From positions 1 to 64,000 of IMG/VR virus record IMGVR_UViG_3300014039_000019: DNA of 64,000 nt. One strand, written 5' to 3'. The position numbers and the translations under genes are program-made. This DNA comes from a virus (Duplodnaviria; Caudoviricetes). Below the pieces are notes generated by a model that worked only from the letters and a program-made list of their open reading frames with translations, was not told the origin of the DNA and ran no database searches. Positions 6,478-60,536 of the stretch are shown here, piece after piece. Position 1 is the first letter of the stretch. Each line of letters starts with the position of its first letter.

Positions 6478-8730
6478 TTATTTTGGTAATTTTACGATAA
6501 AAGAAGAATATCCTTTCTCTTCATTCCTAACCAAACATAATGCATGAAATCGCTTCAAATTAAGCATATCCGTCTCTGTATACCCTTCCTTATAGAATAA
6601 TCCTTTTAATTCTTCAAAACACTTTATATCCGCTCCTGCAAGAAGAATAAAACTACAACCGCTGCTTAAAATCGCATCTTTACATTTTCTATTACATTGA
6701 TTAAGGAAATGTAAACTTATTGTAGGTATAAAAGAATATTTTCTACATTCAGTTAATATATCTTGAAGAATTGTTTGTGCTGTTGGGAATAAGTTAATTT
6801 CATCAAAGAATATTTCTGTTCTAGTATTTGAGCTGATCTGTTTTGATAACCATACTTTACTTAAATAAAATGTGGCAATTAAATCTCTAATATTTCTATT
6901 AGTAAAATCCTCTTCCCTAGCCTTTATTAATATAACTTTATTTTCATTTAATGCTTCTACGAAATTTATATTCTCTTCTGCCGATTTATTAAAAGCCAAT
7001 TTAGTATATAAATTAGTTTTTAATAAGCTCACTCTATCTATTATACCGTCAATCTTACTATCGTAGTTCTCCACTTCTCCATTTTTATTTTCTTTATCTA
7101 ATTCATTTAAATCATTTATTTCATCCTCAAGTAATTTTTTTTGACCCTCTGAAAGCCATTCTAAAGCATTTCTTCTTACATCAGGGTACATAAGTATGCC
7201 TATTACATCTTTAAAACTGGCATTGAAATCTTTATAAAAGGCTACCGTACAAGCAGAATAAAAATATCTCAACATTCTAGGAGTTAATTTAGTATCTGCG
7301 TTAATAGTATTTAATAAGATGTGTAATTGTGTAGCTTTTTCCATACATTTAGCTAATTTTCTATACTTATCCTCATTATCATTACAGGTTAATTCATTAA
7401 AGCAAAAACCTTGTAATTGATTATAATCACTACAATCAATTTCTATAAGTTTATCTTTAGGAGTTACCTTTTTTATGGTTTCTGATAGATTGCAGTCTCG
7501 AATAGTATCTAACACTACTAGACCATCTCCTTTAGCTATTATAGATTTAGCGAGATTCATCATGTAATAAGTTTTACCACAGCCCATTCCGCCCATCAGA
7601 ACTCTTCCTAGACGACTTAATTCTTTATCTGTAGAATAATAAATAGGCTTATTTTTTAAAGATGTTCCTATAAGAATATCTCCATTAGATAAACATTTTG
7701 GGAATTCTTTATTGTATACACTATTATGTTCTATATTTGGGAATTGTTGAATTAATTCTTCTCCCGGAAGAGCAATAAAATTGCTACATTCATACACAGA
7801 TGTATTTAATTGATTCACATTACTTAACACAGGTTTTAAAATATCCACTTCTTTCTTTACCCTTCTATATATAAATTCATTATCATCTTTTACTTCCCCA
7901 TAAGAATTTACAATAGCATCTGCTATAATTTTATCTCTTCTTTTACTTCCCCCTTTTGTAGAAATTAAAATTTGAGTTTTACACAAGTCACTCATTCCCT
8001 TCTTTAAAGTGTTATTGCTTAAAGAATCAAAATTAACAACTCTTTCGGATTTGTCTTGTTTTACTCCAAACATTAAATCTAAAGTCGAATTAAAGAAATC
8101 TACAGTAAAATCCAATATTTTAATAATAATATTTACCATCTTATTTGAAGTATATTTTACAGAAGTGTTTTTATATTCTTTTATAAATTTTTGACAAGAT
8201 GCCCTAAAATAGTTTGATTGTTTTTCTGATACTGGAATAAAGTTATAAAGTATGCTTGCTTCTTCTTCGTCTTGAAGTAATTCAACTATATTCATATTTG
8301 CGTTTAACAAATCATTGTTTCTCATGTCTGTATTACTAGATAAGAAATCCCTATTTTTATAAACGAGTTGATATTTAGATCCGCCTTTTATTATAGGTAA
8401 ACTATTGACTTCTTTTATCTCTACGGATTTCCATACTTCTTTAAATTTAACTTTAAATTTAGAGTAGAATAATTTAGGTACGATAAAATAAAAATTGATT
8501 TTATCATTTGTGATGTGTATATAGTAGCTTGCTTTGAATTGTGTTTTTATAATAACTTTTTTATTTTCGATTTGTATAAGTTTATTTATATTAACAAACA
8601 TTTTGTTAACAAGATATAGAATAGTAAACGTTCTATTGTTTCTGATTGATTTTGTTGGGATTAACTTTAAATATATATATTCTTGATTTTTAATTTCAAA
8701 ATACTTAGAGATAGGAATACTCTTACGCAT
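6478..8730 (-). CDS. HerA/VirB4/TraG-like P-loop ATPase
   Basis: Walker A GGMGCGKT, LVVLD, Walker B IFFDE, ECRKY; 750 aa. Confidence 0.8.
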   Translation of the reverse strand: MRKSIPISKYFEIKNQEYIYLKLIPTKSIRNNRTFTILYLVNKMFVNINKLIQIENKKVIIKTQFKASYYIHITNDKINFYFIVPKLFYSKFKVKFKEVWKSVEIKEVNSLPIIKGGSKYQLVYKNRDFLSSNTDMRNNDLLNANMNIVELLQDEEEASILYNFIPVSEKQSNYFRASCQKFIKEYKNTSVKYTSNKMVNIIIKILDFTVDFFNSTLDLMFGVKQDKSERVVNFDSLSNNTLKKGMSDLCKTQILISTKGGSKRRDKIIADAIVNSYGEVKDDNEFIYRRVKKEVDILKPVLSNVNQLNTSVYECSNFIALPGEELIQQFPNIEHNSVYNKEFPKCLSNGDILIGTSLKNKPIYYSTDKELSRLGRVLMGGMGCGKTYYMMNLAKSIIAKGDGLVVLDTIRDCNLSETIKKVTPKDKLIEIDCSDYNQLQGFCFNELTCNDNEDKYRKLAKCMEKATQLHILLNTINADTKLTPRMLRYFYSACTVAFYKDFNASFKDVIGILMYPDVRRNALEWLSEGQKKLLEDEINDLNELDKENKNGEVENYDSKIDGIIDRVSLLKTNLYTKLAFNKSAEENINFVEALNENKVILIKAREEDFTNRNIRDLIATFYLSKVWLSKQISSNTRTEIFFDEINLFPTAQTILQDILTECRKYSFIPTISLHFLNQCNRKCKDAILSSGCSFILLAGADIKCFEELKGLFYKEGYTETDMLNLKRFHALCLVRNEEKGYSSFIVKLPK

Positions 8731-12195: not shown

Positions 12196-13710
12196 CTATA
12201 CTGGATAATTTGTATCTACACTTAAAATTATATCTCCAGTTACATTTTCAATTTTTATAGTTGCAGTTTTTGGTGAAGATGAAGTGTTCATTGTTACAAC
12301 ACCTTCATTAGAAGTTATGTCTACACCGTTCATTTCTACTTTATTTACTCTTAAAGTTTTTCCGCTAAATGTAAATTCAAAATTTTTCCCTTTTTCTACT
12401 CCTATAATTGGAGGCATTAATGCTACGCCTTGATTAGAAACACTATATAAAATTGAAATACCATTCTCTGTTAATGCATTTTCAAATTCTTCATCTGTTA
12501 TATCTTCACTTGTTCCAGCTGTTATATTATCATCAAAATATTTTTTAGTTATCAAATCTTTATCTTCTGTTGGCGTACCTTCTTGTGTTAACTTGCCTGC
12601 AAACCAAGCATTACCATTCCAATCTAATGTGTGAGCATTACTTCTTTCCATGCCACTTTTGCCGTTACCAACTATGTGAGCGTATTTACTACTTTTATCT
12701 TCTATATTATATTTACCTTGAACGTGTTGATAATCTGATGAAGCAGTCGTAAAACTACCTTCTACATGAGATGCTTTTCCATAAGCGTTTGTTCCCTCTC
12801 CTTCTGCATGAGAAGTTTGCCCCTTAGCTTTCGTTTCCTCTCCTTCTGCATGAGATGCCCATCCACTAGCAGTTGTATTCTTACCTTCTGCATAAGAACA
12901 TCCTCCTGACGCTTCAACGATTTTCCCAATAGCAACACTATATTCTCCTATAGTTGTTCCTTCTTTCCTATTCATACTCATACTGCCAGTAAATACAGGG
13001 TTTTCTCCAGTAAACAGCATAGGAGTTAAAGGAACACTAATTTCAGAAATCTTGTCATCCCCCATTCTTCTAGTCAACATAATCCATTTATAAGGGGAAT
13101 TAGTAGTAGATGTTAAAGTTACTTGACAAACAATATCCCTAGCACCACTCATTGATTCTACTTTAAGAATTTCTATTTGTATTTCACAATTACCGCTTAT
13201 AGGATTATCTTTAGCTCTACTTTGTCCTCTAAACACTTGATTTATTTGAATATCAACTGTATCTATAAGAGTGTCTAAAGATTGAAGAATAGTACTGCCT
13301 GCATCAAATGATACTTCTGTAGTCGCTAAGTCTGTGAATATTTGTATAGTTTTATTTTCACCTATTTGTTCTTGTATAGTTGGTAATTCAGTCCCCTGAT
13401 CTATTTTCTCTCCACTTTCTTTAAGTAAATATAATTTACCTTCTTCAACTTTTGTCTCACATGGAATACTATCATTAATTTCACTATCGTCTTTGTTATA
13501 TAAACAGCATACATACATTTCCCATTCTTCTGTATTTTTAGGTGTAGGCAATTTAACATTATGAAGTAGTTTAATTAATTCTTTATCATTTATTCCGTAA
13601 GATTTAATTGTTTGATATACTCTGTATATTTGAATTGTCGTTCTAGGATAAGAGATTTTACCATATCCCTTACTATATTTATTATTAAAGTATTTAATTA
13701 ACTTGTTCAT
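12196..13710 (-). CDS. fibre/adhesin with YadA-head-like SHAEG repeats
   Basis: shared N-terminal module; SHAEG repeats; HIVGNG..RSNAHTLDWNGNAWF. Confidence 0.75.
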   Translation of the reverse strand: MNKLIKYFNNKYSKGYGKISYPRTTIQIYRVYQTIKSYGINDKELIKLLHNVKLPTPKNTEEWEMYVCCLYNKDDSEINDSIPCETKVEEGKLYLLKESGEKIDQGTELPTIQEQIGENKTIQIFTDLATTEVSFDAGSTILQSLDTLIDTVDIQINQVFRGQSRAKDNPISGNCEIQIEILKVESMSGARDIVCQVTLTSTTNSPYKWIMLTRRMGDDKISEISVPLTPMLFTGENPVFTGSMSMNRKEGTTIGEYSVAIGKIVEASGGCSYAEGKNTTASGWASHAEGEETKAKGQTSHAEGEGTNAYGKASHVEGSFTTASSDYQHVQGKYNIEDKSSKYAHIVGNGKSGMERSNAHTLDWNGNAWFAGKLTQEGTPTEDKDLITKKYFDDNITAGTSEDITDEEFENALTENGISILYSVSNQGVALMPPIIGVEKGKNFEFTFSGKTLRVNKVEMNGVDITSNEGVVTMNTSSSPKTATIKIENVTGDIILSVDTNYPV

Positions 13711-13751
13711 TTAATCAACTCCTTAAAATAATAACCCCTTTCAATTGATTT

Positions 13752-14912
13752 TTATGCTTTAGGTGTAAATGTTTTTGTTACTCCGTTTATAGTTACTACT
13801 AACTCTCCGTCAGAATTAATATATATATCGTTAGTACTTAATAATTTTTTACCATTATTTTGATTATCGCCTTTGACATATACATCGCCTGCGAACCAAG
13901 CATTGCCTTTCCAATCAAGAGTATAAGCATTACTTCTTTCTGTATCATCAGTACCATTACCAACTATGTGGGCATACTTATCATTAGCATCCTCTATATT
14001 ATATTTACCTTGAACGTGTTGATAATTTGATGATGCTTTAGTACTAAACCCTTCTGCATGAGATGCATAAGCCATAGTATAGGTTTCTGTACAACTTCCT
14101 TCTGCATGAGAATAATCTCCTCTAGCGACTGTATTTCGTCCTTCTGCATGGGAATCCTCTCCATAAGCTAAATTATAAGAACCTTGAGCGCAAGAACAAT
14201 TCCCATCAGCAGTTAAATCCCTCCCAATAGCAATAGAATTACGACTTGAGGCTATTGCTCCTTCACCAACAGCAATACTATTATTATAAGCGAATCCTCC
14301 AATTACAATATTGTCTTTTGGAGTTATATATATATCGCTAATATAATCTGTAATTTCAAAAATTTTAATAATTCTTCCTTGAGGAAATTCATTAGACGAA
14401 TAAATACTCATTTTATTATCTAATGTATTAGTATAATATTTTATACCGTTTGAATCGTAATAAACAGAATCATAAGAAGTAGAATCTTGTACTCGATATA
14501 AGGAATCAAAATCTATCCCTATATAAATAACAAATTTATTTAACTTTTGAAAATCTATATCGTATTTAGAAAAATCTAGTACCCTATAGTTCCCAACCAT
14601 ACTTTCATAATATTCTAAATTATTTAATTCATCTGCGGTTAGCTCAATAGTATATTCATTTAATATTTGTGGCATCATTTTATTTCGAGGTATTCCGTCA
14701 TTAATACATTCTGAATACATTTCCATTTCTTCCATTGTTTTAGGTTTAGGTAATTTAATACTATGTAATAATTTAGTTAATTCATTATCTTCAATATTAT
14801 AGTCTTTAATTATTTGATAAACTTGGTATATCTGCATTGTTGTTCTTGGGAAAGAAATCTTTCTATATTCTTTCCCATAATTTTTATTAAAATATTTAAT
14901 TAATTTATTCAT
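13752..14912 (-). CDS. fibre/adhesin with SHAEG repeats
   Basis: same N-terminal module, SIAIG/SHAEG repeats, shared C-terminal tag. Confidence 0.75.
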   Translation of the reverse strand: MNKLIKYFNKNYGKEYRKISFPRTTMQIYQVYQIIKDYNIEDNELTKLLHSIKLPKPKTMEEMEMYSECINDGIPRNKMMPQILNEYTIELTADELNNLEYYESMVGNYRVLDFSKYDIDFQKLNKFVIYIGIDFDSLYRVQDSTSYDSVYYDSNGIKYYTNTLDNKMSIYSSNEFPQGRIIKIFEITDYISDIYITPKDNIVIGGFAYNNSIAVGEGAIASSRNSIAIGRDLTADGNCSCAQGSYNLAYGEDSHAEGRNTVARGDYSHAEGSCTETYTMAYASHAEGFSTKASSNYQHVQGKYNIEDANDKYAHIVGNGTDDTERSNAYTLDWKGNAWFAGDVYVKGDNQNNGKKLLSTNDIYINSDGELVVTINGVTKTFTPKA

Positions 14913-14920
14913 TATTTCAC

Positions 14921-15739
14921 CTATCTTTCGAATACTTCTACATATTTACTACTAGCAGTTATATAATAGCCTGCTTTAACTAAATACATATGCGTACCAC
15001 AACCAGTATCAGTAACTTCTTTCACTATAGTTACACAAGTTCCTGCTTTAACCTCTCCAATCACAGAAGAAGAATTGAAATCAGGAGTTTTATGTATATT
15101 AACATCTTTAAGAACTCTTAAATATTTTGTTTTAGTAGTTGTAGTATTAGGAATTTGAGTAACATTACCTTTACCATTAGTACAGTTTACGATGTCAGAT
15201 AGTTTTATTTTACCTGCCTTTAAATTGTAACAATCTAATCTAAATTGTTCGTATTTTTTTGGATTTAAAACCATGTAAATTGGACACAATTTATATGCTC
15301 TACCAACAACATCTGTGTGTCTAATTATGTCTTTCTTAGGGTTTAACCCTTTATTTGCGCACAACCAAGCACAAAGATGTACCATAGCTTTATATGTAGC
15401 ATCTGTATAATGGTTATCCTTACCTGTGGTTGCCACTTCAACTCCAACAGCATAAGAATTAGCACTATTAGTACAATAACACATTTCATTCAATGGGATT
15501 AATTGATATATTGTTCCGTCTAGGTCAATTACAAAATGAGCAGATGCGTAGATATATCTTCCGTTTACTTTATATCCGTTTGCCACAACATTGTTAAAAT
15601 AGCTAACTGTATTTTTTCCCGGAACATCTGCTTGACCTGTGTAGTGTATTGCCACTTTAGTATAATTTAATTTAATTCCGGGTCTACCGTATTTATTAAA
15701 TTTCATAAATTTTTCTATTATTTTTGGTTTTTGAACCAT
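14921..15739 (-). CDS. endolysin, N-acetylmuramoyl-L-alanine amidase (Amidase_2) with SH3-like C-terminus
   Basis: IHYT, SAHF, GVEV, RHTD, KLCP zinc-amidase motifs. Confidence 0.9.
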   Translation of the reverse strand: MVQKPKIIEKFMKFNKYGRPGIKLNYTKVAIHYTGQADVPGKNTVSYFNNVVANGYKVNGRYIYASAHFVIDLDGTIYQLIPLNEMCYCTNSANSYAVGVEVATTGKDNHYTDATYKAMVHLCAWLCANKGLNPKKDIIRHTDVVGRAYKLCPIYMVLNPKKYEQFRLDCYNLKAGKIKLSDIVNCTNGKGNVTQIPNTTTTKTKYLRVLKDVNIHKTPDFNSSSVIGEVKAGTCVTIVKEVTDTGCGTHMYLVKAGYYITASSKYVEVFER

Positions 15740-15757
15740 AAAATCATCTCCTTGTTA

Positions 15758-15789
15758 AAATAAAAAGAGCAGAGAACAATCTCTACTCT
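15758..15789 (-). terminator. probable weak terminator
   Basis: AGAG(C)AGAGA..TCTCT(A)CTCT stem with T-run on - strand. Confidence 0.5.
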
Positions 15790-17339
15790 GATTTAGGTAC
15801 AAATGTTTTTGTTACACCATTTATAGTGACCACTAATTCTCCCGCATCATTAAATGATATATCTTTTGTACTTAATAATTTATTTCCTTCATCTTGATTA
15901 TTTCCTCCGACATAAACATCCTTTTTAAACCATGCGTTACCATTCCAATCTAATGTATGTGCATTAGAACGATGACTTTCTCCTGTCCCATTCCCAACGA
16001 TTAAAGTATATCTATCATCTTCATTTATGTTATTATATGCCCCAAAAGCAAGTTGTCCTGCTGAATTTGATTCTACACACATTCCTATGGCAGCACTATT
16101 AGTTCCACGAGCAACGGTTCTTTCTCCAACAGAAAGGCTTCTATCCCCTTGAATTTTCCCATTAGAATTATCGTAATTCGTACCTACTTGAAGTGAATCA
16201 GAAATTGTTGCACTTGCTGGTAAATAAACCCCATTTTGAATTTTAAAGTTTTTATCTATTTCATACAAGCTTATTGATAAAGAAAGATTAATAGAATGGA
16301 ATATACTTTCACAAGTACAATTAAAAGATGTAGTTTTATTTTTTTGAAATACAAGTTTTGTATTTTCTTTACTTGCTACTACATATATATATAATTTTAA
16401 ATCTTTTTCTTTATCAATATACATAACCATTGAAGTATGAAGATATTCTAAGTCTCCTCTATAAGAATGATATAGTCGATAAGTTCTTCCTTTATTTATT
16501 TGAAGATAATAGTCCATGTTTTGATAAGCTAATCCTTCTATTCGTGCGCTATTTATAATCCATGTATGCGTAGACATAGAAGAATTAGAAAAAAAATCAT
16601 CAATAGCAGATTTACTTACATCTGTATTAAATACTTCTCTTAATGTATAATCTTCCTTAGAATCAACATATTTTTTATTAACTAAAATATTACTATCATC
16701 GTTATCAGATATAGTGTCAGAAAATTTTATAGGTTTTTTAATGTTTAAATATTTTTGTGATTTATTAGCCACAAAACATCCATCTAAATCAATATGATTA
16801 GGAGAAATTGATATATAACCGTCTTTATTTCCTAAATGAATAGTTTCAGGCATTAATTCTGTATCAATTTTCTTTAGTTCTATAATTTCATATATTTCTA
16901 AATCTGTTTTAATATCAACATACCCATCTGTTAAATCTATTTCAAAATACTCTTCATTAATTATCGTATCTTCTTGCTCGATGTCATAATATGAATTAGG
17001 ATATATATTAATTTCTCCAATAGAATCTTCATGGTAAAGAGCTGTCCCCCAAGGAGTTAGTTGTGGATACATAAAAAATTGTTGATTTAAAAATTTTATA
17101 TAGTATTTTTTATTTGTATCAATTTCTAAATGTTTATTAAAATAAGTATAACGATAATTATTTGACATATTCCATGTTCTATTTATTAATTCTTCTTTTG
17201 TTATTTTTAAAATTAATTTCTTTTTTACATAACAAGGTAATATATCATAAACATCTGTATTAATTTTTTTATCTACCTGATCTAAAGTTTTATTAAAATC
17301 TTTTTTTAATTCTTGTAATAATATATCTTCGTTTAACAT
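15783..17339 (-). CDS. fibre/adhesin protein
   Basis: VGNG..RSNAHTLDWNGNAWF and C-terminal ISFNDAGELVVTINGVTKTFVPKSE. Confidence 0.7.
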   Translation of the reverse strand: MLNEDILLQELKKDFNKTLDQVDKKINTDVYDILPCYVKKKLILKITKEELINRTWNMSNNYRYTYFNKHLEIDTNKKYYIKFLNQQFFMYPQLTPWGTALYHEDSIGEINIYPNSYYDIEQEDTIINEEYFEIDLTDGYVDIKTDLEIYEIIELKKIDTELMPETIHLGNKDGYISISPNHIDLDGCFVANKSQKYLNIKKPIKFSDTISDNDDSNILVNKKYVDSKEDYTLREVFNTDVSKSAIDDFFSNSSMSTHTWIINSARIEGLAYQNMDYYLQINKGRTYRLYHSYRGDLEYLHTSMVMYIDKEKDLKLYIYVVASKENTKLVFQKNKTTSFNCTCESIFHSINLSLSISLYEIDKNFKIQNGVYLPASATISDSLQVGTNYDNSNGKIQGDRSLSVGERTVARGTNSAAIGMCVESNSAGQLAFGAYNNINEDDRYTLIVGNGTGESHRSNAHTLDWNGNAWFKKDVYVGGNNQDEGNKLLSTKDISFNDAGELVVTINGVTKTFVPKSE

Positions 17340-23600: not shown

Positions 23601-26600
23601 CCATATATAATAACTTCCTGATCTGTTTCAGTAGTGATATTATAACTAAATTTGACTGATTTATTTCTTGGAATCTTTAATGTTTGCATACCTGTTCCAT
23701 CTGCTTCGTCTCTCCATTTTACAGATAGATACATAGGACTATAAGTAGATATATTCATTGATACTATACCTTTTTTGTTACAACGAACAGTAACAAAGTT
23801 AGAAGTAGAAGGTTCATATCCGAATAATGTATCACAATATAATAATCTTTCTTTTAGCCATCTTTTTATTTGGAAATATCTGTTGCCATGACAAGCATAT
23901 AAATATTTTGCTCCGAATCTTAAATATTTATATTCTGTTGATTTGTTGTAGTATCTTACTGGTATCTTATCTATTTGATTATCATAGAAATATTTATACA
24001 TATTATCAAGTGTAAATACTCCATTTCTCATATTTATATATTCTTGTTTTAATTCATTAGCAAAATAAAGTCTTATTTTACTCCATAATTTAGAGTTAGA
24101 TGTATTAAATACTCCACCTTCAACTTCTATGTCAACATCGAAAGTTAAAGCACCTGTATTGTCTAATCCCAAAAGTGTCACTCTGTTACTTTCACCTTTC
24201 GGTTACCGACCATATCTCTATGGCGGAAGAGGTTCTTCTTTAATCAGTCTGGTTACTGATGACCCCTTCTCTCTAGTTTCGTTTTTAGATTATAGCTAGA
24301 GTTCAGACTGTTACATCGTTTTATTATTTAAAACGTCTTTTCGTTCAGTCGTTGTTGGTGATTCTGTGATAATATTAATTGTTTCTTTTAATATATTTTT
24401 TATATTATTTTTTTCAGTATAAGGTATTCTTAATAAGTATATTCCGTTTTCTATGCAATACTTATCTTTAATACGGTCTCGTAATTGGGTTTGTTTTAAT
24501 TGTTCTATTGAAAAATCCATTCCTCTTCCCGTATAATCAGTTGGCATAAAATGTCCTTCTCCATCATATTCTATCGCTAAATTTAAATCGGGGACATATA
24601 TATCGAATCGGATATGACTGATTAATTCATTTTTTAAATTAATATGTTTTTCTTTAACAGAATCATATCCTAAATATAGTAATTCATTTTGAATTATTGA
24701 AGGATATTTAGATATTAAACATCCACAAGAAAACGTGTGTCCGCTTCTTAAAGAATTACTTAAAACAACAGTTATATTTCCACAATCGCATTTGCACTTA
24801 CAAATTGTTTTGCCATATTTATTTTTACCTATTTCTTCAATAACTGTTAATTTTCCGTATTTTTCTCCTACAATACTTTTTATACTCATTTTTTCACTTG
24901 CTTTTTTCTTTCTTATACATCCACAATTTTTAGATAAACCTCTTTTTAAATTTTGGTATTTAACTTTTTTAATTGTTCCGCAATCGCATTTGCAAATAGC
25001 TACTAATGGCTCATTTGCTAAATGTTCTTCGAATCCTAAAATTGTCCACATATTATATTTTTTACCGATTTCAGCTTTTTTGTCAATTTTATCTCCTGAA
25101 CATATTAAACATTTATCCCTATTTTTTAAATTATAGTATCTTACTGTAAATTCATGCCCGTTCGAACATCTTACTAATAATTTTGTTTTTGTATTTTTAT
25201 ATTCTTCTTCTTTAGTTAAAAGAGTATATCCCATTTTTTTTACTTGTTCTTTTATATTTTTATAAGTTATTTTTTTACCCATTTTATCACCTCTTTTCTA
25301 TTATATCCATTTAAATATTGTTGTTAACCTTATTATCACAAAATCTTCCAAGGCGTTGCCTATCTCTAGGTTTTCGCCGCATATTAGAAAAGATTTTACT
25401 TGGACTACTCTTAATCCAAGTCGTACACCTGAATGTACCATTTTACACCATCAAATGTAACTAATTTCATATTTTTTCCAAGCGAATCGACACCACCGAA
25501 TACTTGGACAAATAAATAATATCTAAATACCGATTGTCTATCAAAATAAACATCAAATTGACTTTTAAATAAATCCTCATCAGCGCCACTTACAAAATCA
25601 ACTAATGTTTTTAATTCTGCAAAGTTATCATTACCATTTTGTCTACTTGGAGGATATAAACATTCAAAGTCAGAAGCATAATAATTTTGTTCTGTTTTAC
25701 CACTCTTAGAAGTCCAAGAGTTAAAAGCACCTGCTGTTTCATCTGTATTGGCAGATACTTCATAAGCTAAACATTTATCAAATAAATTATATCCATAAGA
25801 ACGATAACTATATCTATCTAAGTTAAAATCATATAATCCGACAAATTCATCATTTATATATAAAAGTATAGGGAAACCTTCTATGGCTTGTCTAACTTTA
25901 TTATTCTTTAATTGAGCAGGATTCTTTTCCACATATAGATTGTCATTAACGAACATAGCGGACCCTGTATTCATAGCATTAGAAGATTCCATTTGATTAC
26001 ATTTTAAACAGAATAAATTTTCTAAAATACCATTTTTAAAAGGAGTATAAAATACTTGGTTACCATCACTATCTCCTAATTCTATATTGTAATTCTTATT
26101 AGCATATTGAATAGAAGAAGTCCCTTGCCAATACATATTACATCTAGGATATTCAAAAGATGCTCCATATAGATCAGCATTAGGTGAAACATATTTTATT
26201 CTGACTTCTTTTTTATTTGTTAAAGTCATATTACTTATATCCCCATAAACATACATACAAGGCATATAAGCATCGTTATAATTTTTATTATATTCTTCTT
26301 CTTGTTGTTCTATAGGCATATCTGCTATTCTATTTTGCAAAATTTCTTCATCTGATAATTCTCTTTCGTACATCATTATTCTTTTTATTTTACATGAACC
26401 AAAATTACTTGTTCCTTTTTCGCTATTCAAATATATTTTTTCTGCGTGCTTTATTTGTTCGTAAATTATTTGACTACCAGAAGATGAATCCGATAATTGG
26501 AATGGGTCACAGCATACTCCATTAACAAGTATCTTCCCAAATTTAGAAACCCTATCAATCATAAAGGTAATTTGTATATCTTCTCCTTGTCCTATATCTA

Positions 26601-28079: not shown

Positions 28080-31000
28080 TTATTTATTTCTGTCTGAATA
28101 ATTAACAGTAAGTGTATCGAATAAAACTCTTTCATTTTTTGTAGAATCAAAATCATTTACTGTAATTTTTCCTTCTAAATCTTTAGTAAGTACATCTTTA
28201 ACATAATACATATTAAATGTAACTTTATCATATCCGAAGTCTGCCATTATATATGTTGGTTGTACTGGTAGAGTACCAGTATAAGCATACCACCAAGGTT
28301 GTCCGTTACCATTATCATGTATCGAACTTGAGTTTTCAGATTTTAATAAGTTTTGGCCGCTAGGTAAATTAATTGCTTTTTCTTTACCACTTTGTTTATA
28401 ACCTGTTGCTTGGCACATTATATAATATGTTCCGTTAGCTTTATTAGCCGTTCTTGTTATGCTTTCATCTACTATTTTTAATTGAGTAGAACCAGTAGAA
28501 ACAACATCTACATAATTATTATATGGAGCAAGTGTGAATTTTCTAGTAGAAGCATCATATGTAGCGCCTTTATATCCTGTATATAATGGTATACTTCTAC
28601 TGTATGTATGGTTGTGCATTATATTATTTTTATGAACGTTACTTCATAAACCGAGAATTTCTCTCGCCCTAACTTTCATTAGGATATTAGACTATTTCTT
28701 CACCCTATATAATAGAGGCAAACCTTATCCGACATACTTTGTCGTACTCTCTTGCGAGATAGTCTTTGAAGTTTATTCTTATTATTTTATTTTAAGCTCA
28801 TCTTTTAATATTTTTTCAATATCATTGAATTCTAAATAAGAGATTCTTATTATTTTAATATTGTTGTCTATACAGAACTTGGTTTTAACTGTGTCTCTTA
28901 TTTTTCTATCTATAAATGTTTCGTAACCTCCAAAATGCTTTATTATTTTATAATGTTGTATTCCATCATATTCAATACAACAATTATAGTTAGGCAAATA
29001 AAAATCAAAAGGTAAACATTTATAAAATTTACAATTATTAAATTTATATTGAGGAATATACTTAATATTATATTTTTTTAATATTTCTCTTATATTTTTT
29101 TCTCCTTTGCTTTCATTGCAAATAGGGCATCCGCTATTATTGTTAATCACATTATCGTAGGTAGCGTTAAATATATGTCCCTTTTCACATTGTAAAACAA
29201 TTTTTTCTTGATTATTTTTGTATTTAGATAATAAATGAAATCCTTTTTTTTGAAGATTTGTAATTACATCTTTTGCATCGTTAGTCATATTCTCAATCAT
29301 ACATTGTTTGCATCCACTTCCTTTTATAAAACTATCTAAACGAATCTCGTGATAGTGACCATTAGGGCATTGTAACTTTAATTTGGTTTTTTTATTTTTA
29401 TATGGTTCTAACAACTTATATCCTCTTTTTTCTACTAAAGATTGTATATATTCTTGAGAATGTTTTTTATTAGAATATTTTGATTTTGATGCTGATTTAT
29501 TTGTATTGATGTATCTTCTTTCAAAAGTGTATAATGTTACTTGTTCGATATTTCCTTTTTCGTTTTTAAATTTAATTATATCTCGCATATTTAAATTTTT
29601 CTTTTCATTTAAAAGTATCAAGTTATTATTTTTACAAATATTTTTAATTTGAGAATATGTATATTTATATTGTTTATTTAAGGAACAAATCGAACATCTT
29701 TGTCCTTTCTTAAAATTATTAAAAGACATTTCAAAAATATGTCCTTCCGGGCATTTGATTTTCATTTTTTTATGTATATTAATATATTTATTATCTAATA
29801 ATATGTAGCCATGAGAATTTATATATTCTTTTACGTTATTATAATTTAATTTTTTTCCTATTTTACTCACCTCGTAAAATTATTTGAGCTTAAATAAATA
29901 AATTTAGAATCTTACCTGCATGAACATCCATTTTGATATAATTTATTTATTATCATTATATCCAAGTACTTAGGATTTAACCATATACTTATCCTTACGT
30001 TTTTTCTACTTTCGTACCTTCATAACCTCTTTTCAGGGTTATTGTGGTGTAAGGCTTTAGGAATTACCTGCAATTAAATTTGTAATTTTTGAAACCGATT
30101 ACTCGATAACTAGGGCAACATTACCCGCATAATACAAAATCTACCTTATGTTTTTCTATATAAGGAATCCATTGTTGTAGTCTCTTAGTTCTAACTATTG
30201 TAAAAGGACTTAAGTGACAAGTAACAACTGTCCATCTAGGCTTAGTCGCTCTTGCTTCCACCTTAGTTAGATCAGCATCTAAAAATTCTATTTGTTTTCT
30301 TAAAAATTCATCAGTTTCTACTCCTGCATACATATATTCGGTATTAGAATTTATTACTACAAAATGCACAAATCCAACATCAAAACTATAGCTAGAAACC
30401 ATTGGGACTTCTTTATCCCCAACTACATGAGGTTCATAAGCATTTAATAATGGTTGATTTTCGAAAGTACCATAATATTCAAATGCTGTACCAAATTTTT
30501 TGTCTATTAAATCGTTATTTCCACAATTAAGAATATGTGGCATATTTTTTAAATTACCTTCATGATATTTATAATAATATCTCCATTCTTGTGGTCTATT
30601 CGCATTTTGTGAAATATCGCCTGTATTTAAATGACAATCAAAATTAGGAGTACCATTTGAATATTCATAATGTTCTATAGCATCACAAGCTGTTTTTACT
30701 GCTTTATATTCATATTCTGTAAATCCTTGTTCGTCAGTAGTCCATAACATTTTTAAACTATTAGATTGACCATATTCTTTTACTTCAAATGTTTCTATAT
30801 CTGTAAGCATACCTTCTACACCTACTTGATATTCATAAGTTCCATAAGTTAAATTATGAATCATAACTCTATGAATATTTACTACTTGGTTATATAAATT
30901 CACGATATCTTTTTCAGTTTTCTTTTTAATCCATTTTGATTCTCCTTGTTTTCTATATTTAATGATTCCGTCATAATCTGTTACTGGAGTTTCAAAAGTA

Positions 31001-32037
31001 AAAGTTCTTGAAGTATTGCCATCTTCACCGTAACACATATTAACCATTGAAGGACTATATTTATTAAACTGGATTGTTTCTGCACTTGAATTCCAATATC
31101 CATCTGCTAAACTTCTTGGTCTAAATTTTTCAACTTCACAAGTTTGATAATTTATAATACTTGCATCGTCTCTATTATTTTTACCGTTATTAAAATTCAT
31201 TCTTCTTAAAGAACAATATCTACTCATTCCCATATTATAATATCCGCCTTCATATACTGCGATAGTATGAGAATCTTCTGTTCCTCCACCTGCAAGCATA
31301 TCAACCCATCTTTGGTTAGTAGATGTTATTGCTCCTAATTCATTTTTTATATATTTAACTGGTGTTGCTTCGGGTTCTGTTTCTCCCACGCATAAATACA
31401 TTGTAAATCCATTTTCAGAGAAAGATATATTCCATTCTTGGTCGTATTCTTTTATTTTACATCTTACTATATCACTATTTATATTATAAAGAGCATTTCC
31501 TCTAACTAAAAAAGAATGTCCGGCAGGAACTATACCTTTTAAAGCTAAAGAACTCCAACTTCCACCATTAGGTTTATACCAAAGATATAGACCATTCAAA
31601 TTTATATCAACGGTATTGCAATTATATAATTCAACAAAGTTATGACTTACTGCTGTTTCTTTTGTAGTTAATGAACCACCTCCATATATTTGTTGAATAA
31701 CTAAACCACTATTATTTGTAGAATCTATTTTATTACTTGGAATTATTTTTAAAGGAGACTCTAAATTTTGTCCTTCTGTATAAGGAGTGCTAGTATAAGC
31801 TTCTAAAGGGAAAATGTGAATTTTACCACTTTCATCTAATGTTAATCTAAATTCTTTTTTGCCGTCAGAAGACAATAAATTTAAATATTGGTTAGAAGTA
31901 TCTCCTAATAATGCTTTCTTTAAAGTTTCTATACTAGCTATTTTATTTTCAAATCCACTATCTAAATTTGTCCCTAATAATATATAGTCTGTATCATTAA
32001 TAACTATGGTTTTACTAAGTTCATTATATTTAGTCAT
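28080..32037 (-). CDS. spliced lamin-tail-domain / FN3 / purple-acid-phosphatase-family metallophosphoesterase, about 816 aa (exons 32037-30124 and 28616-28080)
   Basis: LTD (IQQIYGGG..FVELYN), TTDEQ, TGDI, GNND, H, and CG|HNH restored across the intron. Confidence 0.85.
28617..30123 (-). mobile_element. group I intron in phosphatase gene (5' boundary 30123 or 30122, see findings)
   Basis: P1 GGGU/GCCC; AAUUGCAGG...CAUGCAGG core; CUUCAAAGACUA / AAGAAAUAGUC; terminal G. Confidence 0.9.
28782..29870 (-). CDS. intron-encoded homing endonuclease (Zn-ribbon repeats plus Vsr-like/EDxHD domain)
   Basis: three C..GH...C..C repeats plus one degenerate; SKGE..FDFYLP.YNCCIEYDGIQH..RD..K. Confidence 0.85.
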   Translation of the reverse strand: MSKIGKKLNYNNVKEYINSHGYILLDNKYINIHKKMKIKCPEGHIFEMSFNNFKKGQRCSICSLNKQYKYTYSQIKNICKNNNLILLNEKKNLNMRDIIKFKNEKGNIEQVTLYTFERRYINTNKSASKSKYSNKKHSQEYIQSLVEKRGYKLLEPYKNKKTKLKLQCPNGHYHEIRLDSFIKGSGCKQCMIENMTNDAKDVITNLQKKGFHLLSKYKNNQEKIVLQCEKGHIFNATYDNVINNNSGCPICNESKGEKNIREILKKYNIKYIPQYKFNNCKFYKCLPFDFYLPNYNCCIEYDGIQHYKIIKHFGGYETFIDRKIRDTVKTKFCIDNNIKIIRISYLEFNDIEKILKDELKIK

Positions 32038-50700: not shown

Positions 50701-53700
50701 CTAATTTTAGTTTACTTTCATCAATTGTCCCTGTTGTAAATAGATTTTTAACTGAATCACTTGCATTGATATGCTTAAATTCAGTAAGTTTCTTTTTAAG
50801 ATTTGCCAATTTTGTTTCTGTATCTTTTGTATCTAAATCTACTTTTATATTGTTATCTCTATTTTTATTTATGTCGTTAATTTGTCTCATGATGTCAGTA
50901 TCTATTTTATCTCCACCAGCAAGCGAAATAGGAATTTTTAGTTCTGCTTCTGTAAGCTCTCCATTAAACATTTTTTCAAGGAGTTCAGTAGCCTTTGCGT
51001 CTCCTACTTTACCTGTATTTTCAATAGTAGTTGCTAAAGTAGCCACTAATGATGCCTCAACTTTTGTTATTGTATTCTTCCCGTCAGTAACTCCTTCTAT
51101 TATCTTTTGTAATTGTGGAGGTAAGTTCTTATAACCCTCACCCTTAGCAACATCAGTTATAAGTTTGATTTTTTGTTCAAGAGTAAGAGTATCACTTGTC
51201 ATATTTTGCATAAACTCTTCTAACTCTAAAAATTGAGATTGAAGTTGCATAGCTAGCTCGTCTTTATTTATAGTGATATCGAATAAATTCTTTCCAAATC
51301 CTGATAAGAATTTTTCCAATTTCATTTTGCTTAAATCTAAGCCGCCTTCTAACTGACTTGTAAACCCTGTTATCCATTGACTAGCATCTATACCAGTTAT
51401 TTTTTCTAACTCTTTTGCAACTCCTGCTATTTGTTTTTGATATCCCTCTATATTACCTGTTTGTTGAAATACTTCATTTGCTTGTCTTAAAGTTTCGTTC
51501 CATTTTTGAACATCTTTATAATGGTCAACTGAATATTCAGATATCTTATCAAAACCTTTTAAAAATTCATTTCTTTTACTTAAATTATCTGCAACTAATT
51601 CATTAGACCAATCATATAATCCAATTAAATCTTTCATCTCTGCTTTTTGTCTATTGCCAAGTAAAGAATAAGATTTATATTTAGTAGACATTAATTCATT
51701 AAATGCTACGGCTTCTTGTTGAGATTCATATTCTGCATATTGAGCATTTTTTTCTGCGTAACTTTTATTTAAATTTGCTATTGATTCTTGTTGATTAGCG
51801 TATGCCTTAGCGTACTGTTTACAACCTTTTTCAAAATCTTTTAAACTTAACCCAAATAAATTTGCTGGGTCTTGGAATGGATTTTTTACGGCATTTTTTG
51901 TTATAACCTCATCATATACATTTGTTTTTAATGTTCCATTAGTTCTATAATCTCCAACTAATTTACCTGCGTCTTGAGCTGCAGAAGCCTGTTGTGCAAT
52001 TAATAGTTGATTTTCTTTTTCTATCGCTATTTCTAATTTTTCAATCAATGCATCCGTACTATTCCCCAATGCCAAAATAGGGTCTTGATTTTCGTCATAA
52101 CCCATTACTAACTCTGGGAACATTTCTGCAAGTTGTTGTTTATATCCGCTTAAACGAGCCATTTCATCAGAAGTTAGATCAGCTTTATTTGCAAGCTTTT
52201 CGTAATCTTCAGCCATAGATTTTAAAGCAGTCCTTTTATCATTTAAATTAGATATCTCTGCTTGAGTTGATTGTATTCCTGCTTTTGATGTTTCATAAGC
52301 TTTTTCGGTTTTATGAACATAATTGTCAATAGCACTAACTGCTGCGCTTATTCCACCTATAGCTAAAGACAATAACGCACCATTTAATAACGAAACTCCA
52401 ACAGACATAGCTATAGATTTAGCTCCACCTAAAACCATTGATTTAGCGGTTTCTTTGACACCTTTTGTTACTTTTTCTGCTTGAACTGCTCCTTTAGATA
52501 ATGTATCGCCAGTTCTTTTTAAGTTTCCTTCTGCATCTTTCGTACATACCATAAAACTTGTCGAAGTGCTTTTTAATGTTCTTTGTATTCTATTACTATT
52601 TGACTGAACATCGCTAGCTAAAGCTTTGGTATTTTTAGACATTACCCTTCTCATATTTTGAGAAGCGTTTGCCATATTATTTGATACAACTGTTACTTGT
52701 GATTGGGCTTGTTTAAAGTTTTTAACAAATCCGCTACCTATAACACTTAAATTACTTCCTGTTGCTTTAGCTTTTATAGCATTAAATAAGGTAGCTATTG
52801 AAGCTATCGCTACTGGAGTTGCCATATTTATTTTATTTAAAGCGCCTAAAAAATTATTAATTCCTTCAATGCCTGCGGCTAATCCTCCGACTGCATTTTT
52901 AGCCATATCTGATGTAATAGTAGTTGTTACTAATTGTCTAAATTGGTCTTTTAAAGCCACTATTTTACCTTCAAGACTGTCTATAAATCTTTCATTTTCT
53001 TTTTCGGCACTACCAACTGTAAATCCTTGATTATATTCGTCTTGATATTGTAAAACTGTTTCCCAGTTATTTAACATGGCTTGTAATGTATTTGCATGAT
53101 ATTTTTGTCCTATAGCTTCTGTAATAGTAGCTCTTTTAACTTCATTTAATGAATCCCATTTATCATGTAATTCATCTAGTATTTCGAAAGAACTCTTTAT
53201 AGTTCCTTTTTGCATATCTACTACATTAATTCCAGCCATATCTCTTAATGTTTTTGCAGTTTTATTTAATGTTACTCGTCCTGTCTTTGCAGAATAAGTA
53301 ACCCCATTTAAGCTAGTTGCCATAGATTTTAATGCATTACCAACTTTTGAAGCATCTTGTACGGTTTCATTAGCACCTATAATCATACCTATACTTTGGC
53401 TTAAAGTATTACCACTTGCTTTTAATTGAGATGCTGAACGTTGTAGTGCTTCCCCTACATCGGCAGATGTAACTGCAAAGTTGTTCGGTTGTCTTCATAT
53501 GGGTTCGCTACTTCCCATACAGTTCTCTTATGAACTTCTCTAGCTTTCACTAGAAGCCGAGACTATATCTTCATCTTGTTTTTTTTAACAAGAGCTTTCC
53601 ACTTCCACTCGCTTGAGTGTACTTCCCTGTCGAGAATAGTCGTTGAAGTTTATTCTTGGTTTATTTCTTTAGTTAATATATTTTCAATATTATTAAATTC

Positions 53701-56700
53701 CCAATAAGGAATTCTAACTAATCTAATGTTATTTTTATCGCAATATATATTCTTAATTGTATCTCTTATTTTCGTATCTATAAAACTATTTTGTCCACCA
53801 AAATACTCACTAATATAATAATGTTGCCTACCATCATATTCAAGACAACAGTTATAATCAGGCAAGTAAAAATCAAAAGCTAAGGTATTTTTATATTTAC
53901 AATCTTTAAACCTATATTGTTCTATATAATTTATATTATTTTTATCTAAATATTCTTTAATTTTTTCTTCGCCTTTAAAAATAGTTTTACATTTTGGACA
54001 TCTTCTACCTTCTTTAAAATGATGATAAGACACTTTATGTATATGTCCATTTGGGCATATTGTTTTTAATTTTGTTCCACAATTTTTATAAGACTCTTTA
54101 TCAGATATAACTTGGTATCCTTCTTTTCTAAATTCTGAAACTATATTTTCAAAAGAATATTTAAATCTCGGTTTACATTTAGGACATCTGCAATTACCTC
54201 TCCTAAAAGAATCATAAGACAATGCTTCTGTTATATGCCCATTAGGACATTTAAGTTTCAATTTTTGTTTATTTGATTTATATAAACATAAAACTTCATA
54301 ACCGTATTTACTAAAATATTCTTCTATATATTTCTGTGTTAATCTTTTACTCATTTAATCACCTCTCTTCTATTATATCCATTTATATATTGCATTTAAC
54401 ATTATTTTAAAATAAACTTTAGAATCTTACCTGCTGATTACCCAATCTTTATTTTTTTTAAACATTCACGCCTATCGTTTCCAATTACGTTGTAGTATTA
54501 AAGCTCTTAGGGTTTCCCAGTCAATTCAAAAAGTTAAATAATACAATCGCTTGTATTACTGGGCGATTAGTTTACATTCACCCGCATAATTTGCCTGATC
54601 CATATAATCTGCTAATTGACTATATGCACTACCTGCACCTTTAACCTTATCAGTCATAGGTTTTAATGATTTAGCAACTCCGCCATATGCAGAAGCTATA
54701 GTTTTAATATATTTATCTGCCGTCTGCTCGTCAATTTCTGCTACGTTAGCATACATATTGACACTCTTAGCATATTGCATAGCATCTTTTACATTATCTA
54801 TACCTAATTGGAAGGCAGATGCAGTTGAGTTTATGATGTCTACAGAACTTCTTGCAACTTGTTGTCCTGTTTCATAAGCCATTTCTTTGACTTCTTGTAA
54901 TTCTTGTTTTGTACCTGTGAAGCTTGCAGGAGCAACTTTTTCCATATCTCTAAAAGCACTATCTAATTCTACTATTGTATCGTTTATTGCATAGATACCT
55001 TTAGTTATTTGCATACCTAAAATATTACCTAAAGAATAAGTAGATAAAGTAGAATATAAGTTAGAAACGAATTTGCTAGCTGACTTCATAGAAGTACTTA
55101 TTCCTGTCGATGCGCTTTTAGCCGCTCTATTTGCGTTTTGGAATCCTTTTTCTAATTTTGAAGCTTCGCTATTAATTCTTCTTAATTGAGCCTCTGCTTC
55201 TTTAAAAGATACTTTTCCTAATCCTTGCAATTCATCTTTCAGTTTTCTTATAGGAGCTACATCTTTACCTATAGATTGGAATTTCTTTTCTAATTCATTT
55301 AATCTTTGTGTAGCTGTTTGAATAGATGTGTCTAAATTAAATCCTTTTATATCAACGTTGGATTTAGATTTTAATTCATCAAATTCCTTTTCTAATTCAT
55401 TAAGACTTGCAACTAATCTTTTTACGTCACTTTCTGCTGCTTCTGAATTTAAATCTATCTTTGTTCCAGATAAAGTTTTAATTCTTTGTATAAGGTTGTC
55501 AATATTTTGTGTATCTCCGAAAAATTTTGTTTTCTTAAATATTTCGACCTGACTTTGAAGTTGTTGTAATTGGCTCTTTGCTTGAGTCGCTTGATTTCCT
55601 AACTTTTCACTAAAAGTAATATTATTATCTATACTTTTTAATTCCTTATCCAGTCTTTGAATTTCAGAAATTAATAAAGATATTTGTTCGTATGGTTTAT
55701 CCATTTTTAAAATGTCGTCTAAACGGACAGTTTTTAAATAATCAACCATGCTTTTAACTTCTTGTATTCTACCTGTTTGAGATGAAGGTATATTTGTCTT
55801 ACTCATAACATTAGACAATTTAGATTCTAATGAAGTAACACTTTTTTCTATATTTGTAAATTCTTTTGCAAAATTTGTTATCGAAGCTAAATTACCTTCT
55901 GGAAGTTTAACATTCCTCATTAATGAAACTGTAGCTTCTATTCTAGTATCAATTTTTTCTAATTCAGCGCTTAATAATTGATATGATTGTGTATTGATAT
56001 TTGTTTTAGATAAAGTTTTTTCTAATGAGTTTTTTTGACCTATTAATTTGTTATATTCTTTTAAGGCATCCGCTTGAGTTTTTATGCCTGTTGTATTTTT
56101 AGCTATAGAATTTATCTCATTATTTAGCCTCTTTAGCTTACTCTCTGCCTCTTCTAAAGGAACGTTAGCCAAATTACTTAATTCTGTTTTTATCTTTTCT
56201 GCACTAGAGGTATCTTTACCCATTGATTGGAGTGCTTTAGTTAAAGTATTAATCCTTTCTAAACTAGAATTTACACTTGTAGTAAAATCAAATGATTTTT
56301 TTGCACTTGTTGAAATCGCACTTAAATCCCTTAATTCACCTTCTACAAGTTGAATTGTTTCAGATAAATTTCTCAAATCTGTTGTTGCAGTTTTTGAATC
56401 AATATTTATTTTTGCATTTTTTAAATCAGAGTTAAATAAAGCTATAACTTGTTGAAGTCTATTTTGTAAATCTGTTGTGTTTAAAAATCCTTTTACATTT
56501 TTTAATTTATCTAACTCTTGCCCTAATTGTGCAACTTTCTGATAGGCTGCTTCAACCCTAGTATTAAAATCGCTATTAATTGTTATATCTTTTGCTGTAG
56601 TTTTTACTTTTTGCAAATCGCCTAAAAGAGTTGCCATATGTTCGTGAGAGTTTGATATATTTAAGATATTATCTAATTTAGTACCTTTTATTCTATCAAT

Positions 56701-59250: not shown

Positions 59251-60536
59251 TTATACAGTTTTTTTGTCTATTTCTAATATTAAGTCTTGGTCATCAACTA
59301 ATATGTCCCAAGTTAAACTAAAGTCTGATATTTCTTGTGCTGATATTGTTAAGTCAGCATTAGGTTGCGCTTTCGCTTTGCTGAATTTTATTGATTTAAC
59401 TTCTGTACTACCATCTTCATTAACAACTTCAAATGTACCTTCCATTTTGTAATATTTGCTTGGTATAGTACCTTTAACTTGTATTTTAGTACCAGTTATT
59501 TCACCACCAAGCATTTGAGCTAAGAAGAAGTCATCTATAACTTGTGCATCCATTTGTAATGCCTAATGTTCACATAGGTTCGTAACGCCTATATCGTTCA
59601 TCTAAGAACTGCCTTATCTTTCGATAAGAGAGCAGACTATATCACTTCCCTGATTTTCTTACAGGGATTCCTCCACTTCCATTTAAGGGGTTCTCACCCA
59701 CTCCATTAACTTGAGCCGTACTCCTATTGCCTATTTCAAGGCTACTCACGATATTACTCGCTTTCGGTTAGTCGTTGAAGTTTATACATTTGTTTGTTTA
59801 AAATTTTATCTATATTATCAAATTCCCAATAAGGAATTGTTATTAATTTAATTTTATTTTCTGTGCAATAATTTTTCTTTTTCAAATCATGTTTTCTTTG
59901 TATTTCAAATTTTTCTTTACCTCCAAAATATTTTACTGGTTCATAATGTTGCACTCCTTGATATTCGATACAGCAATTATAATCGGGCAAATAAAAGTCA
60001 TAAGATAAATTACACCCTCCTTCACCTTTTAATGAAGGATATACTTTTTGTCTTTCATAAATAATTTTATTATTATTTAAATAATTTATTATTTTTTCTT
60101 CCGTCCATTTTGTTCTCATATTATCACCCTTCATATTTAACAAACAAATATATCTTACCTGCTGATTGCCCATTGTCAGATATAATAATTATATCCAAAG
60201 CACTTAGGGTTTAACCATATGCCATCTAATTAATTTTTTCTACTTTCGCAACATTCACGCTTAGGATTTAACCTTACGTTGTAGTTTAATTAGCTTTAGG
60301 GGTTTCCAGCAATTCAAAGGATTTGCTATGCTAATTACTTAACATAGGGAACGTTATTTTATTCCTTTTCTTTGACCTGCTATAGTTATACATAAATCTC
60401 CTCTTTTGTAAGCTTCGAAGTTTTCTGATTCAGTTGTTATATTAAAACTATTAAGAAAATCTATAGTAGTAGTATCTTCAGGATTAGCTAAATTTGTTAA
60501 AGTTAAGTCGCAAGCACTTTTTATTGCATATCCCAT
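59251..60536 (-). CDS. spliced major tail tube protein, about 161 aa (exons 60536-60362 and 59561-59251)
   Basis: joined ..AGQRKG-T-LQMDAQV..; beta-rich acidic tube-like sequence; followed by terminator and chaperone. Confidence 0.8.
59562..60361 (-). mobile_element. group I intron in tail tube gene (5' boundary 60361 or 60360, see findings)
   Basis: P1 GGAAU/GUUCC; AAUUGCUGGAAA, AAUCAGCAGG, CUUCAACGACUA, GAUAUAGUC; P9.0 CU/AG; terminal G. Confidence 0.9.
59754..60119 (-). CDS. intron-encoded endonuclease, nuclease domain only (probably internally deleted)
   Basis: MRTKWT fused directly to EEKI..YDFYLPDYNCCIEYQGVQH..HD..K..IPYWE; no Zn repeats. Confidence 0.75.
   Translation of the reverse strand: MRTKWTEEKIINYLNNNKIIYERQKVYPSLKGEGGCNLSYDFYLPDYNCCIEYQGVQHYEPVKYFGGKEKFEIQRKHDLKKKNYCTENKIKLITIPYWEFDNIDKILNKQMYKLQRLTESE

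Follow-up and report, generated by a model that had tools for sequence, protein, structure and literature searches.

The window, by which we mean the whole 64,000-nucleotide stretch of DNA analyzed here, covers the initial 64 kb of a virus record of 143 kb. Its late genes are encoded on the minus strand, and its tape-measure protein most closely resembles those of phiCD211-like Clostridioides phages. The gene of interest is a predicted virion-module metallophosphatase of this phiCD211-like Clostridia phage, and it is interrupted within the GHxH motif by a mobile group I intron of the IA2 type. The locus comprises the following features.

30124–32037, minus strand: phosphatase exon 1, 638 aa, ending in ..VDFVLCG; last codon GGG, with a stop codon directly after
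28617–30123, minus strand: inserted element, 1507 nt, starting with U and ending with G, delimited by presence/absence against the contigs L005, L006, L007, L008, and L011 and the genome G005
28080–28616, minus strand: phosphatase exon 2, HNHTYSRS..., 178 aa plus stop codon
30123–30126, minus strand: P1 5' strand GGGU, in which U30123 forms the wobble pair with G30116 yet is absent from intronless alleles
30113–30116, minus strand: internal guide sequence GCCC, invariant in four sequences
30091–30110, minus strand: P2 hairpin with a GUAA loop, its stem kept by paired changes in an alignment of the window with L107
29911–30085, minus strand: P3 5' strand, P4 5' strand (P element AAUUGCAGG), long P5 extension, and P4 3' strand (Q element), placed by the Rfam alignment of the homologue L109
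28782–29870, minus strand: homing endonuclease ORF in the P6 loop, 362 aa
28689–28771, minus strand: R element with the P7 5' strand, P7.1/7.2 insertion, P3 3' strand, P8, and S element with the P7 3' strand (AAAUAGUCU), placed by a partial RF00028 match (28667–28819) and compensatory pairs
28629–28683, minus strand: P9, P9.1, and P9.2 hairpins, with changes on both sides of P9.1 and P9.2
28617–28628, minus strand: 3' tail AAUAAUAUAAUG, ending in the terminal G28617; its length and position match those of conventional relatives

The exon 1 ORF shares 34.7% identity with gp352 of Bacillus phage G, which is annotated as a metallophosphoesterase and contains the uninterrupted sequence ..VICGHHH... 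In the intronless relatives, the two exons are contiguous, and when those of the window are joined they encode LCGHNH, aligning with VICGHHH of gp352. GHxH is a conserved metal-binding motif of calcineurin-like phosphoesterases. In Pfam searches of the separate exons, Pur_ac_phosph_N (28.5 bits, cut-off 30) and LTD were matched, while Metallophos was not. Exon 2 is contained in a 179-aa ORF (28619–28080) starting M-HNHTYSRS.

Ribozyme fold and endonuclease

A search of the whole window with Rfam at gathering cut-offs returned nothing, and an E-value scan of the region yielded only noise. Searched genome-wide with RF00028, the record contains sub-threshold cores at 28667–28819, 53538–53719, and 59612–59843, and the 3' half of the phosphatase intron in the window scores 22.8 bits (E = 7e-5). 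Because a long ORF disrupts the match to the model, scoring was done on ORF-less homologues. That of the phosphatase intron (L109) reaches 45.4 bits (E = 2e-10), just below the 50-bit cut-off, and the conserved splice-site U of RF00028 aligns to its junction U. The cut-off is exceeded by an ORF-less tube intron (64.3 bits) and by the ORF-less tape-measure introns of relatives (82 bits). In the 3' half of the phosphatase intron alone, seven base pairs have changed on both sides across three lineages, and these compensatory changes, together with the RF00028 matches of the ORF-less homologues, indicate that the ribozyme is under selection.

The 12-nt tail following P9.2 is homologous to the tails of conventional relatives (10–13 nt), which supports G28617 as the terminal G. 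A second candidate for the terminal G, located 20 nt upstream, would add 7 codons in frame. It was discarded because it falls within the loop of P9.2 and because another G would be required in the third lineage; in the parallel case of the tube intron, any upstream extension of the exon 2 frame in the window immediately meets an in-frame UAG.

The ORF within P6 matches the phage homing-endonuclease families phrog_559 (E = 3e-73) and phrog_9084 as well as Pfam DUF4379 and CapR zinc-finger repeats, and its product is 45% identical to the nuclease of the tape-measure intron. When the nuclease sequence was searched against the PDB, nothing matched, and a resemblance to Vsr-like EDxHD homing endonucleases was accordingly not confirmed. 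The ORF is absent or degenerate in L109 and L101.

A one-base excess at the phosphatase and tube sites

Seven related IMG/VR contigs were compared at the phosphatase site. Five of them (L005, L006, L007, L008, and L011) are intronless, conform to TGY GGN|CAY AAC CAY, and read TGC GGC|CAT/CAC AAC or TGT GGT|CAT AAC, while the other two (L009 and L010) carry the intron with junctions identical to those of the window, which, like many independent public assemblies, reads TGC GGG-[U...AAUG]-CAC AAC CAU. The insertion measures 1507 nt, whereas textbook cleavage, immediately behind the U of GGGU/GCCC, would release 1506 nt and leave one base too many. By rule, the last exon base is a U, rarely a C, paired with the guide G; here the exon ends in G30124, which lies in a G-C pair. 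The elements of this observation had already been set out in a first-pass annotation, and a check of the minus strand agrees with its reading of exon 1 as UGC GGG U with a GGGU/GCCC P1 (30126–30123/30116–30113) and of G28617 as being followed by CAC AAC CAU.

As GGG is a short homopolymer, an extra G or T at the junction might be suspected to be an error of sequencing or assembly. However, the same junction occurs in SPAdes, MEGAHIT, and Logan assemblies as well as in diverged lineages. GGG-T...ATG-CAC is found in L009, L010, and at least ten independent ENA/Logan assemblies from several studies, and the exon 2 ORF that marks the intron-bearing phosphatase allele is present in 26 index blocks of public assemblies. 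An identical junction exists in two diverged host-gene lineages, L109 (83% exon 2 identity, with an ORF-less intron) and L107 (44%). Since the junction is stable across independent assemblies as well as three host-gene lineages, including one with an ORF-less derivative, the extra base is real and the chance of an artifact is negligible, in agreement with the original argument against sequencing error. Apart from contigs already known, pattern scans of IMG/VR for both junctions produced only chance matches, and a megablast search of the region against phage records found no match.

That the tube intron shares the anomaly was likewise borne out. We compared six related genomes for the presence or absence of insertions, with the following outcome.

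Window 24179–25413: intron in the CotH gene, conventional
G002: second CotH-site intron, conventional
G003 and G004: intron at phosphatase residue 506, conventional
G005 13550–14735: intron, conventional
Window 53486–54579: tape-measure intron, conventional; the intronless phiCD211 reads NYAG|NNFA
G001 and G003: mini-intron in the tape-measure gene, 14 nt upstream of the tape-measure intron, able to splice only after a C
Window 28617–30123, minus strand: phosphatase intron, one-base excess
Window 59562–60361, minus strand: tube intron in a phrog_2729 virion gene, one-base excess

The tube gene reads GGA ACA TTA in five intronless alleles and GGAA-[T...GG]-CATTA in the window, with boundaries that cannot slide and with A rather than G as the last exon base (GGAA|U). 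Of the nine positions of the intronless junction GGAA|CAUUA, eight are complementary to the tube guide UAACGUUCC. A stub ORF marking the interrupted tube allele was located in 46 index blocks of public assemblies, among which are ORF-less forms of 428–430 nt and a diverged lineage, where P1 is longer owing to a synonymous AAA-to-AAG change and ACU replaces ACA as the Thr codon at the junction. A virion gene disabled in this way would not persist so widely. There is no second copy of either the phosphatase or the tube gene in the genome and hence no compensating paralogue.

Position of the 5' splice site

Translation of the three main candidate junctions agreed in each case with the first-pass annotation. 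A conventional cut, joining U30123 to C28616, yields CG-SQPYIQ-stop; joining G30124 to C28616 yields CG-HNHTYSRS, which matches the intronless alleles and gp352; and keeping the U while losing the C, by joining U30123 to A28615, yields CG-YNH, placing Tyr in the motif. By hand enumeration, none of the remaining U/G splice-site pairings restores the frame. The five intronless alleles and phage G gp352 establish that the functional junction is G|H with no spare base, and the intronless protein, with the first His of GHxH in place, would be produced only by a cut before the U.

From these comparisons, we infer that the 5' site is probably shifted and that cleavage occurs one base pair upstream of the U-G wobble. 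U30123 would still pair with the guide G30116, but would belong to the intron rather than the exon; the ribozyme would cut between G30124 and U30123, and G30124 would then be joined to C28616, which follows the terminal G28617, thereby restoring ...LCG-HNH... exactly as in the intronless alleles. Such a site would be of the type shown experimentally for the ribozymes of group B (IS607-type) IStrons. The shifted site proposed in the first-pass annotation is thus supported on several grounds: it gives the sole junction that reproduces both the intronless alleles and GHxH, the fold has been kept by compensatory changes in three lineages while exon 2 is free of decay, and related group B IStrons cut likewise according to both RT-PCR and in vitro data.

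A frame-preserving product would also result from a conventional 5' site combined with a 3' site one base downstream, after C28616. The resulting CG-YNH would, however, have Tyr in place of a metal-binding His, the base removed is the very C that the His codon of the intronless alleles requires, and the terminal base of the intron would not be a G. In group I introns, the 3' site follows a G held in the G-binding pocket. We therefore find this arrangement scarcely credible.

It is also conceivable that the gene exists in pieces, with the two halves made as separate polypeptides that assemble without exon ligation. UAA directly follows GGG and AUG directly precedes CAC in all three lineages, and gene callers do list the 179-aa M-HNH protein. 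Yet the AUG has no Shine-Dalgarno sequence, is located within the structured 3' tail of the intron, and would be removed by splicing, while the ribozyme itself is conserved by covariation. Moreover, phage group I introns typically have a UAA right at their start. This scenario is accordingly regarded as very unlikely. A similarly low probability is assigned to conventional splicing followed by translational recoding, in which tRNA-Gly would slip by +1 from GGG to GGU on the spliced GGG-U-CAC. The GGG-U sequence does permit a Gly tRNA to re-pair in the +1 frame to give CG-HNH, but the tube junction has no comparable slippery site (GGA AUC A; AAG GGA AUC in L092), and the only phage tRNAs are those for Tyr, Trp, and Met, with no frameshift suppressor among them.

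Another possibility is that the intron is cut conventionally after U30123, such that the mRNA retains the U and encodes a truncated phosphatase (638 aa plus SQPYIQ). In this case, the intron would be spreading selfishly in a dispensable gene, and the U would have been imported from a site of the tape-measure type. The tape-measure and phosphatase sites do share TTATGCGGGT in different frames as well as the same P1, as expected if ectopic homing had imported the GT of the donor. The intron is also more conserved than the host genes across lineages; its presence in three of them may reflect recent homing rather than long co-existence. Furthermore, the phosphatase may be dispensable, in which case persistence of the intron at this site is not by itself proof of correct splicing. 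On the other hand, a one-base deletion would suffice to repair the frame and none is seen in the three lineages. Exon 2 has no stops, and its dN/dS between intron-bearing alleles (0.04–0.10) is in the same range as that between intronless ones, a sign of strong purifying selection acting on the HNH frame. The ribozyme has been kept even in an ORF-less copy, the same architecture exists in a widespread single-copy virion gene, and cleavage before the U is proven for related ribozymes. Collectively, the conserved ribozyme, the purifying selection on exon 2, the lack of a compensating deletion, and the persistence of this architecture in a virion gene present in one copy all favor production of an in-frame mRNA, and we consider a truncated product to be improbable.

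The tape-measure intron provides a counterpoint to the shifted site, since it has the same GGGU/GCCC P1 and yet splices conventionally (GGU|AAC, encoding AG|NNFA), from which it follows that the P1 sequence alone does not explain the shift. The two introns also have in common a 10-nt 5' flank, TTATGCGGGT, homologous P9.2 hairpins and tails, and the aforementioned similarity of their nucleases. They differ in what lies beyond the U-G pair: the tape-measure P1 runs two pairs further, and in conventional relatives one or two pairs follow, whereas the U-G of the tube intron itself closes the loop. The correlate proposed in 2014, a U-G directly closing the loop, consequently fits the tube intron, but it fits the phosphatase intron only loosely, as the predicted P1 there allows one A-U pair after the U-G, followed by a 4-nt loop. 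The shared flank, together with nucleases that are 45% identical, suggests from sequence comparison that the phosphatase intron originated by ectopic homing between look-alike sites. The sequence TTATGCGGGT is found at window positions 54580–54591 (tape-measure) and 30123–30132 (phosphatase), and the native phosphatase site already reads TTATG(C/T)GG.

Precedent in IStrons and other introns of the phage group

A one-base excess of this kind is not new, having been published in 2014. Group B IStrons sit after AGGG, TGGG, or GAGG, and homologues free of the element lack the junction U (Tourasse, Stabell & Kolsto 2014, PMC4227781). According to RT-PCR, BcISt1 of Bacillus cereus splices after the G to leave ligated exons without the U, and its full-length circle contains the U as the first base of the element (PMC4227781). 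The same authors point out that the U-G of group B IStrons is displaced by one pair and predicted to lead straight into a loop. The IS607-type IStron of C. botulinum (CbISt/CboIStron, flank TGGG) has been found to splice scarlessly in cells as well as in vitro (bioRxiv 10.1101/2023.11.20.567912), and a 2026 preprint reports 98% precise junctions and an effect of the 3' exon upon splicing efficiency, but not accuracy. It had further been proposed that exon 2 needs an initial C to pair with the guide G. This part finds no support in the precedent, as the 3' flanks of IStrons are highly variable, and the idea draws here on two sites at which the codon would call for C regardless.

Over its first 165 nt, in the 5' half, the phosphatase intron shares 77% identity (E = 1e-20) with an element of Staphylococcus phage StAP1, which follows TATGGG, begins with T, and continues into a TnpB gene (OrfB_IS605, Cas12f1-like TNB). 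The TnpB gene after the ribozyme identifies this element as an IStron. Between this similarity and the IStron experiments, the shifted cut is biochemically established in related ribozymes, and we infer the same for the phosphatase intron. The StAP1 IStron is unannotated and resides in a cultured Silviavirus phage (72372–74140), where the annotated "exonuclease (II)" (AAA_23, SbcC/Rad50-like) ends TAT GGG|T at the point where the ribozyme begins.

Like group B IStrons, the phosphatase intron has an IA2-type fold with P7.1/7.2 and P9–P9.2, is inserted after a site ending in GG (here TGCGGG), has at its junction a U (TGCGGG|U) which is paired with the guide G but does not occur in homologues without the element, and carries a GAAUAA/GAACA-type motif after P9.2. 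Unlike them, it lacks both a transposase/TnpB module and a guide-RNA right end, with no more than a 12-nt tail following P9.2, and its mobility stems from the homing endonuclease in P6, its sole ORF. Its 3' end is AUG, whereas that of IStrons is CGG, and the sister tube intron differs from them in having A instead of G at exon position -1. Broad similarity was also apparent to introns of Staphylococcus, Bacillus, and Enterococcus phages. With conventional phage IA2 introns (T4 td, Twort orf142, SPO1 polymerase; RF00028), the phosphatase intron shares the P/Q/R/S core, the terminal G, a P6-borne ORF, a stop codon where the intron begins, and a location within a conserved motif of a phage gene. 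The distinction is that the wobble U is the last exon base in those introns and the first intron base here.

The present case is thus probably a further natural example of a rare habit already shown experimentally in related transposon-borne introns, and it entails no new mechanism. It would carry the habit of cutting before the U from IStrons to classical homing-endonuclease introns in virion genes. Because annotation pipelines and covariance models put the 5' site after the U, frameshifted or truncated phage genes will be predicted for such introns. More tentatively, and with some doubt on our part, bringing its own wobble U could be a general trick by which endonuclease-driven phage introns colonize sites that lack a U (after a G here, after an A in the tube gene), with the register, after or before the U, being set within a ribozyme family by whether or not P1 continues past the U-G. 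If so, the tape-measure and phosphatase introns would constitute a natural matched pair for such a register rule, having the same GGGU/GCCC P1 within one genome. With this pair and the public intronless and intron-bearing alleles, the question of 5'-site selection raised in 2014 becomes directly testable.

Several further insertions were encountered. At phosphatase residue 506/507, in a CG|NND motif, a second and conventional intron of ~1287 nt (e.g. L009 5519–6805) is carried by four relatives (L007–L010), but not by the window. A third site was evident in the distant phosphatase homologue L107 (1760–2150), after ..WTTDQQS, and its intron looks conventional (GAGU/GCUC, ..UUUGG|UGG AGU). A 1.58-kb insertion in G005 relative to four relatives (15151–16741; L057) was considered as an intein and rejected, since it has stops in all frames; its ends are unlike those of a group I intron. 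The mini-intron of the tape-measure gene is an ORF-less element of 448 nt (G001 75907–76360 and G003, in the L023/L024 region) inserted at AGGC|AAAC, where the C forms a C-G pair with the guide. In phiCD211 (L110 28891–29156), an annotated Intron_gpI is located downstream of the tape-measure site of the window and splits the tape-measure gene into two CDS. Finally, several intron 3' tails repeat the first 5–6 nt of the downstream exon, namely AUAACG|AAUAACG (window 53486–53496), ACAACCG|AACAAC (L009 near 6795–6812), and CAUUAGG|CAUUA (window 59562–59571).
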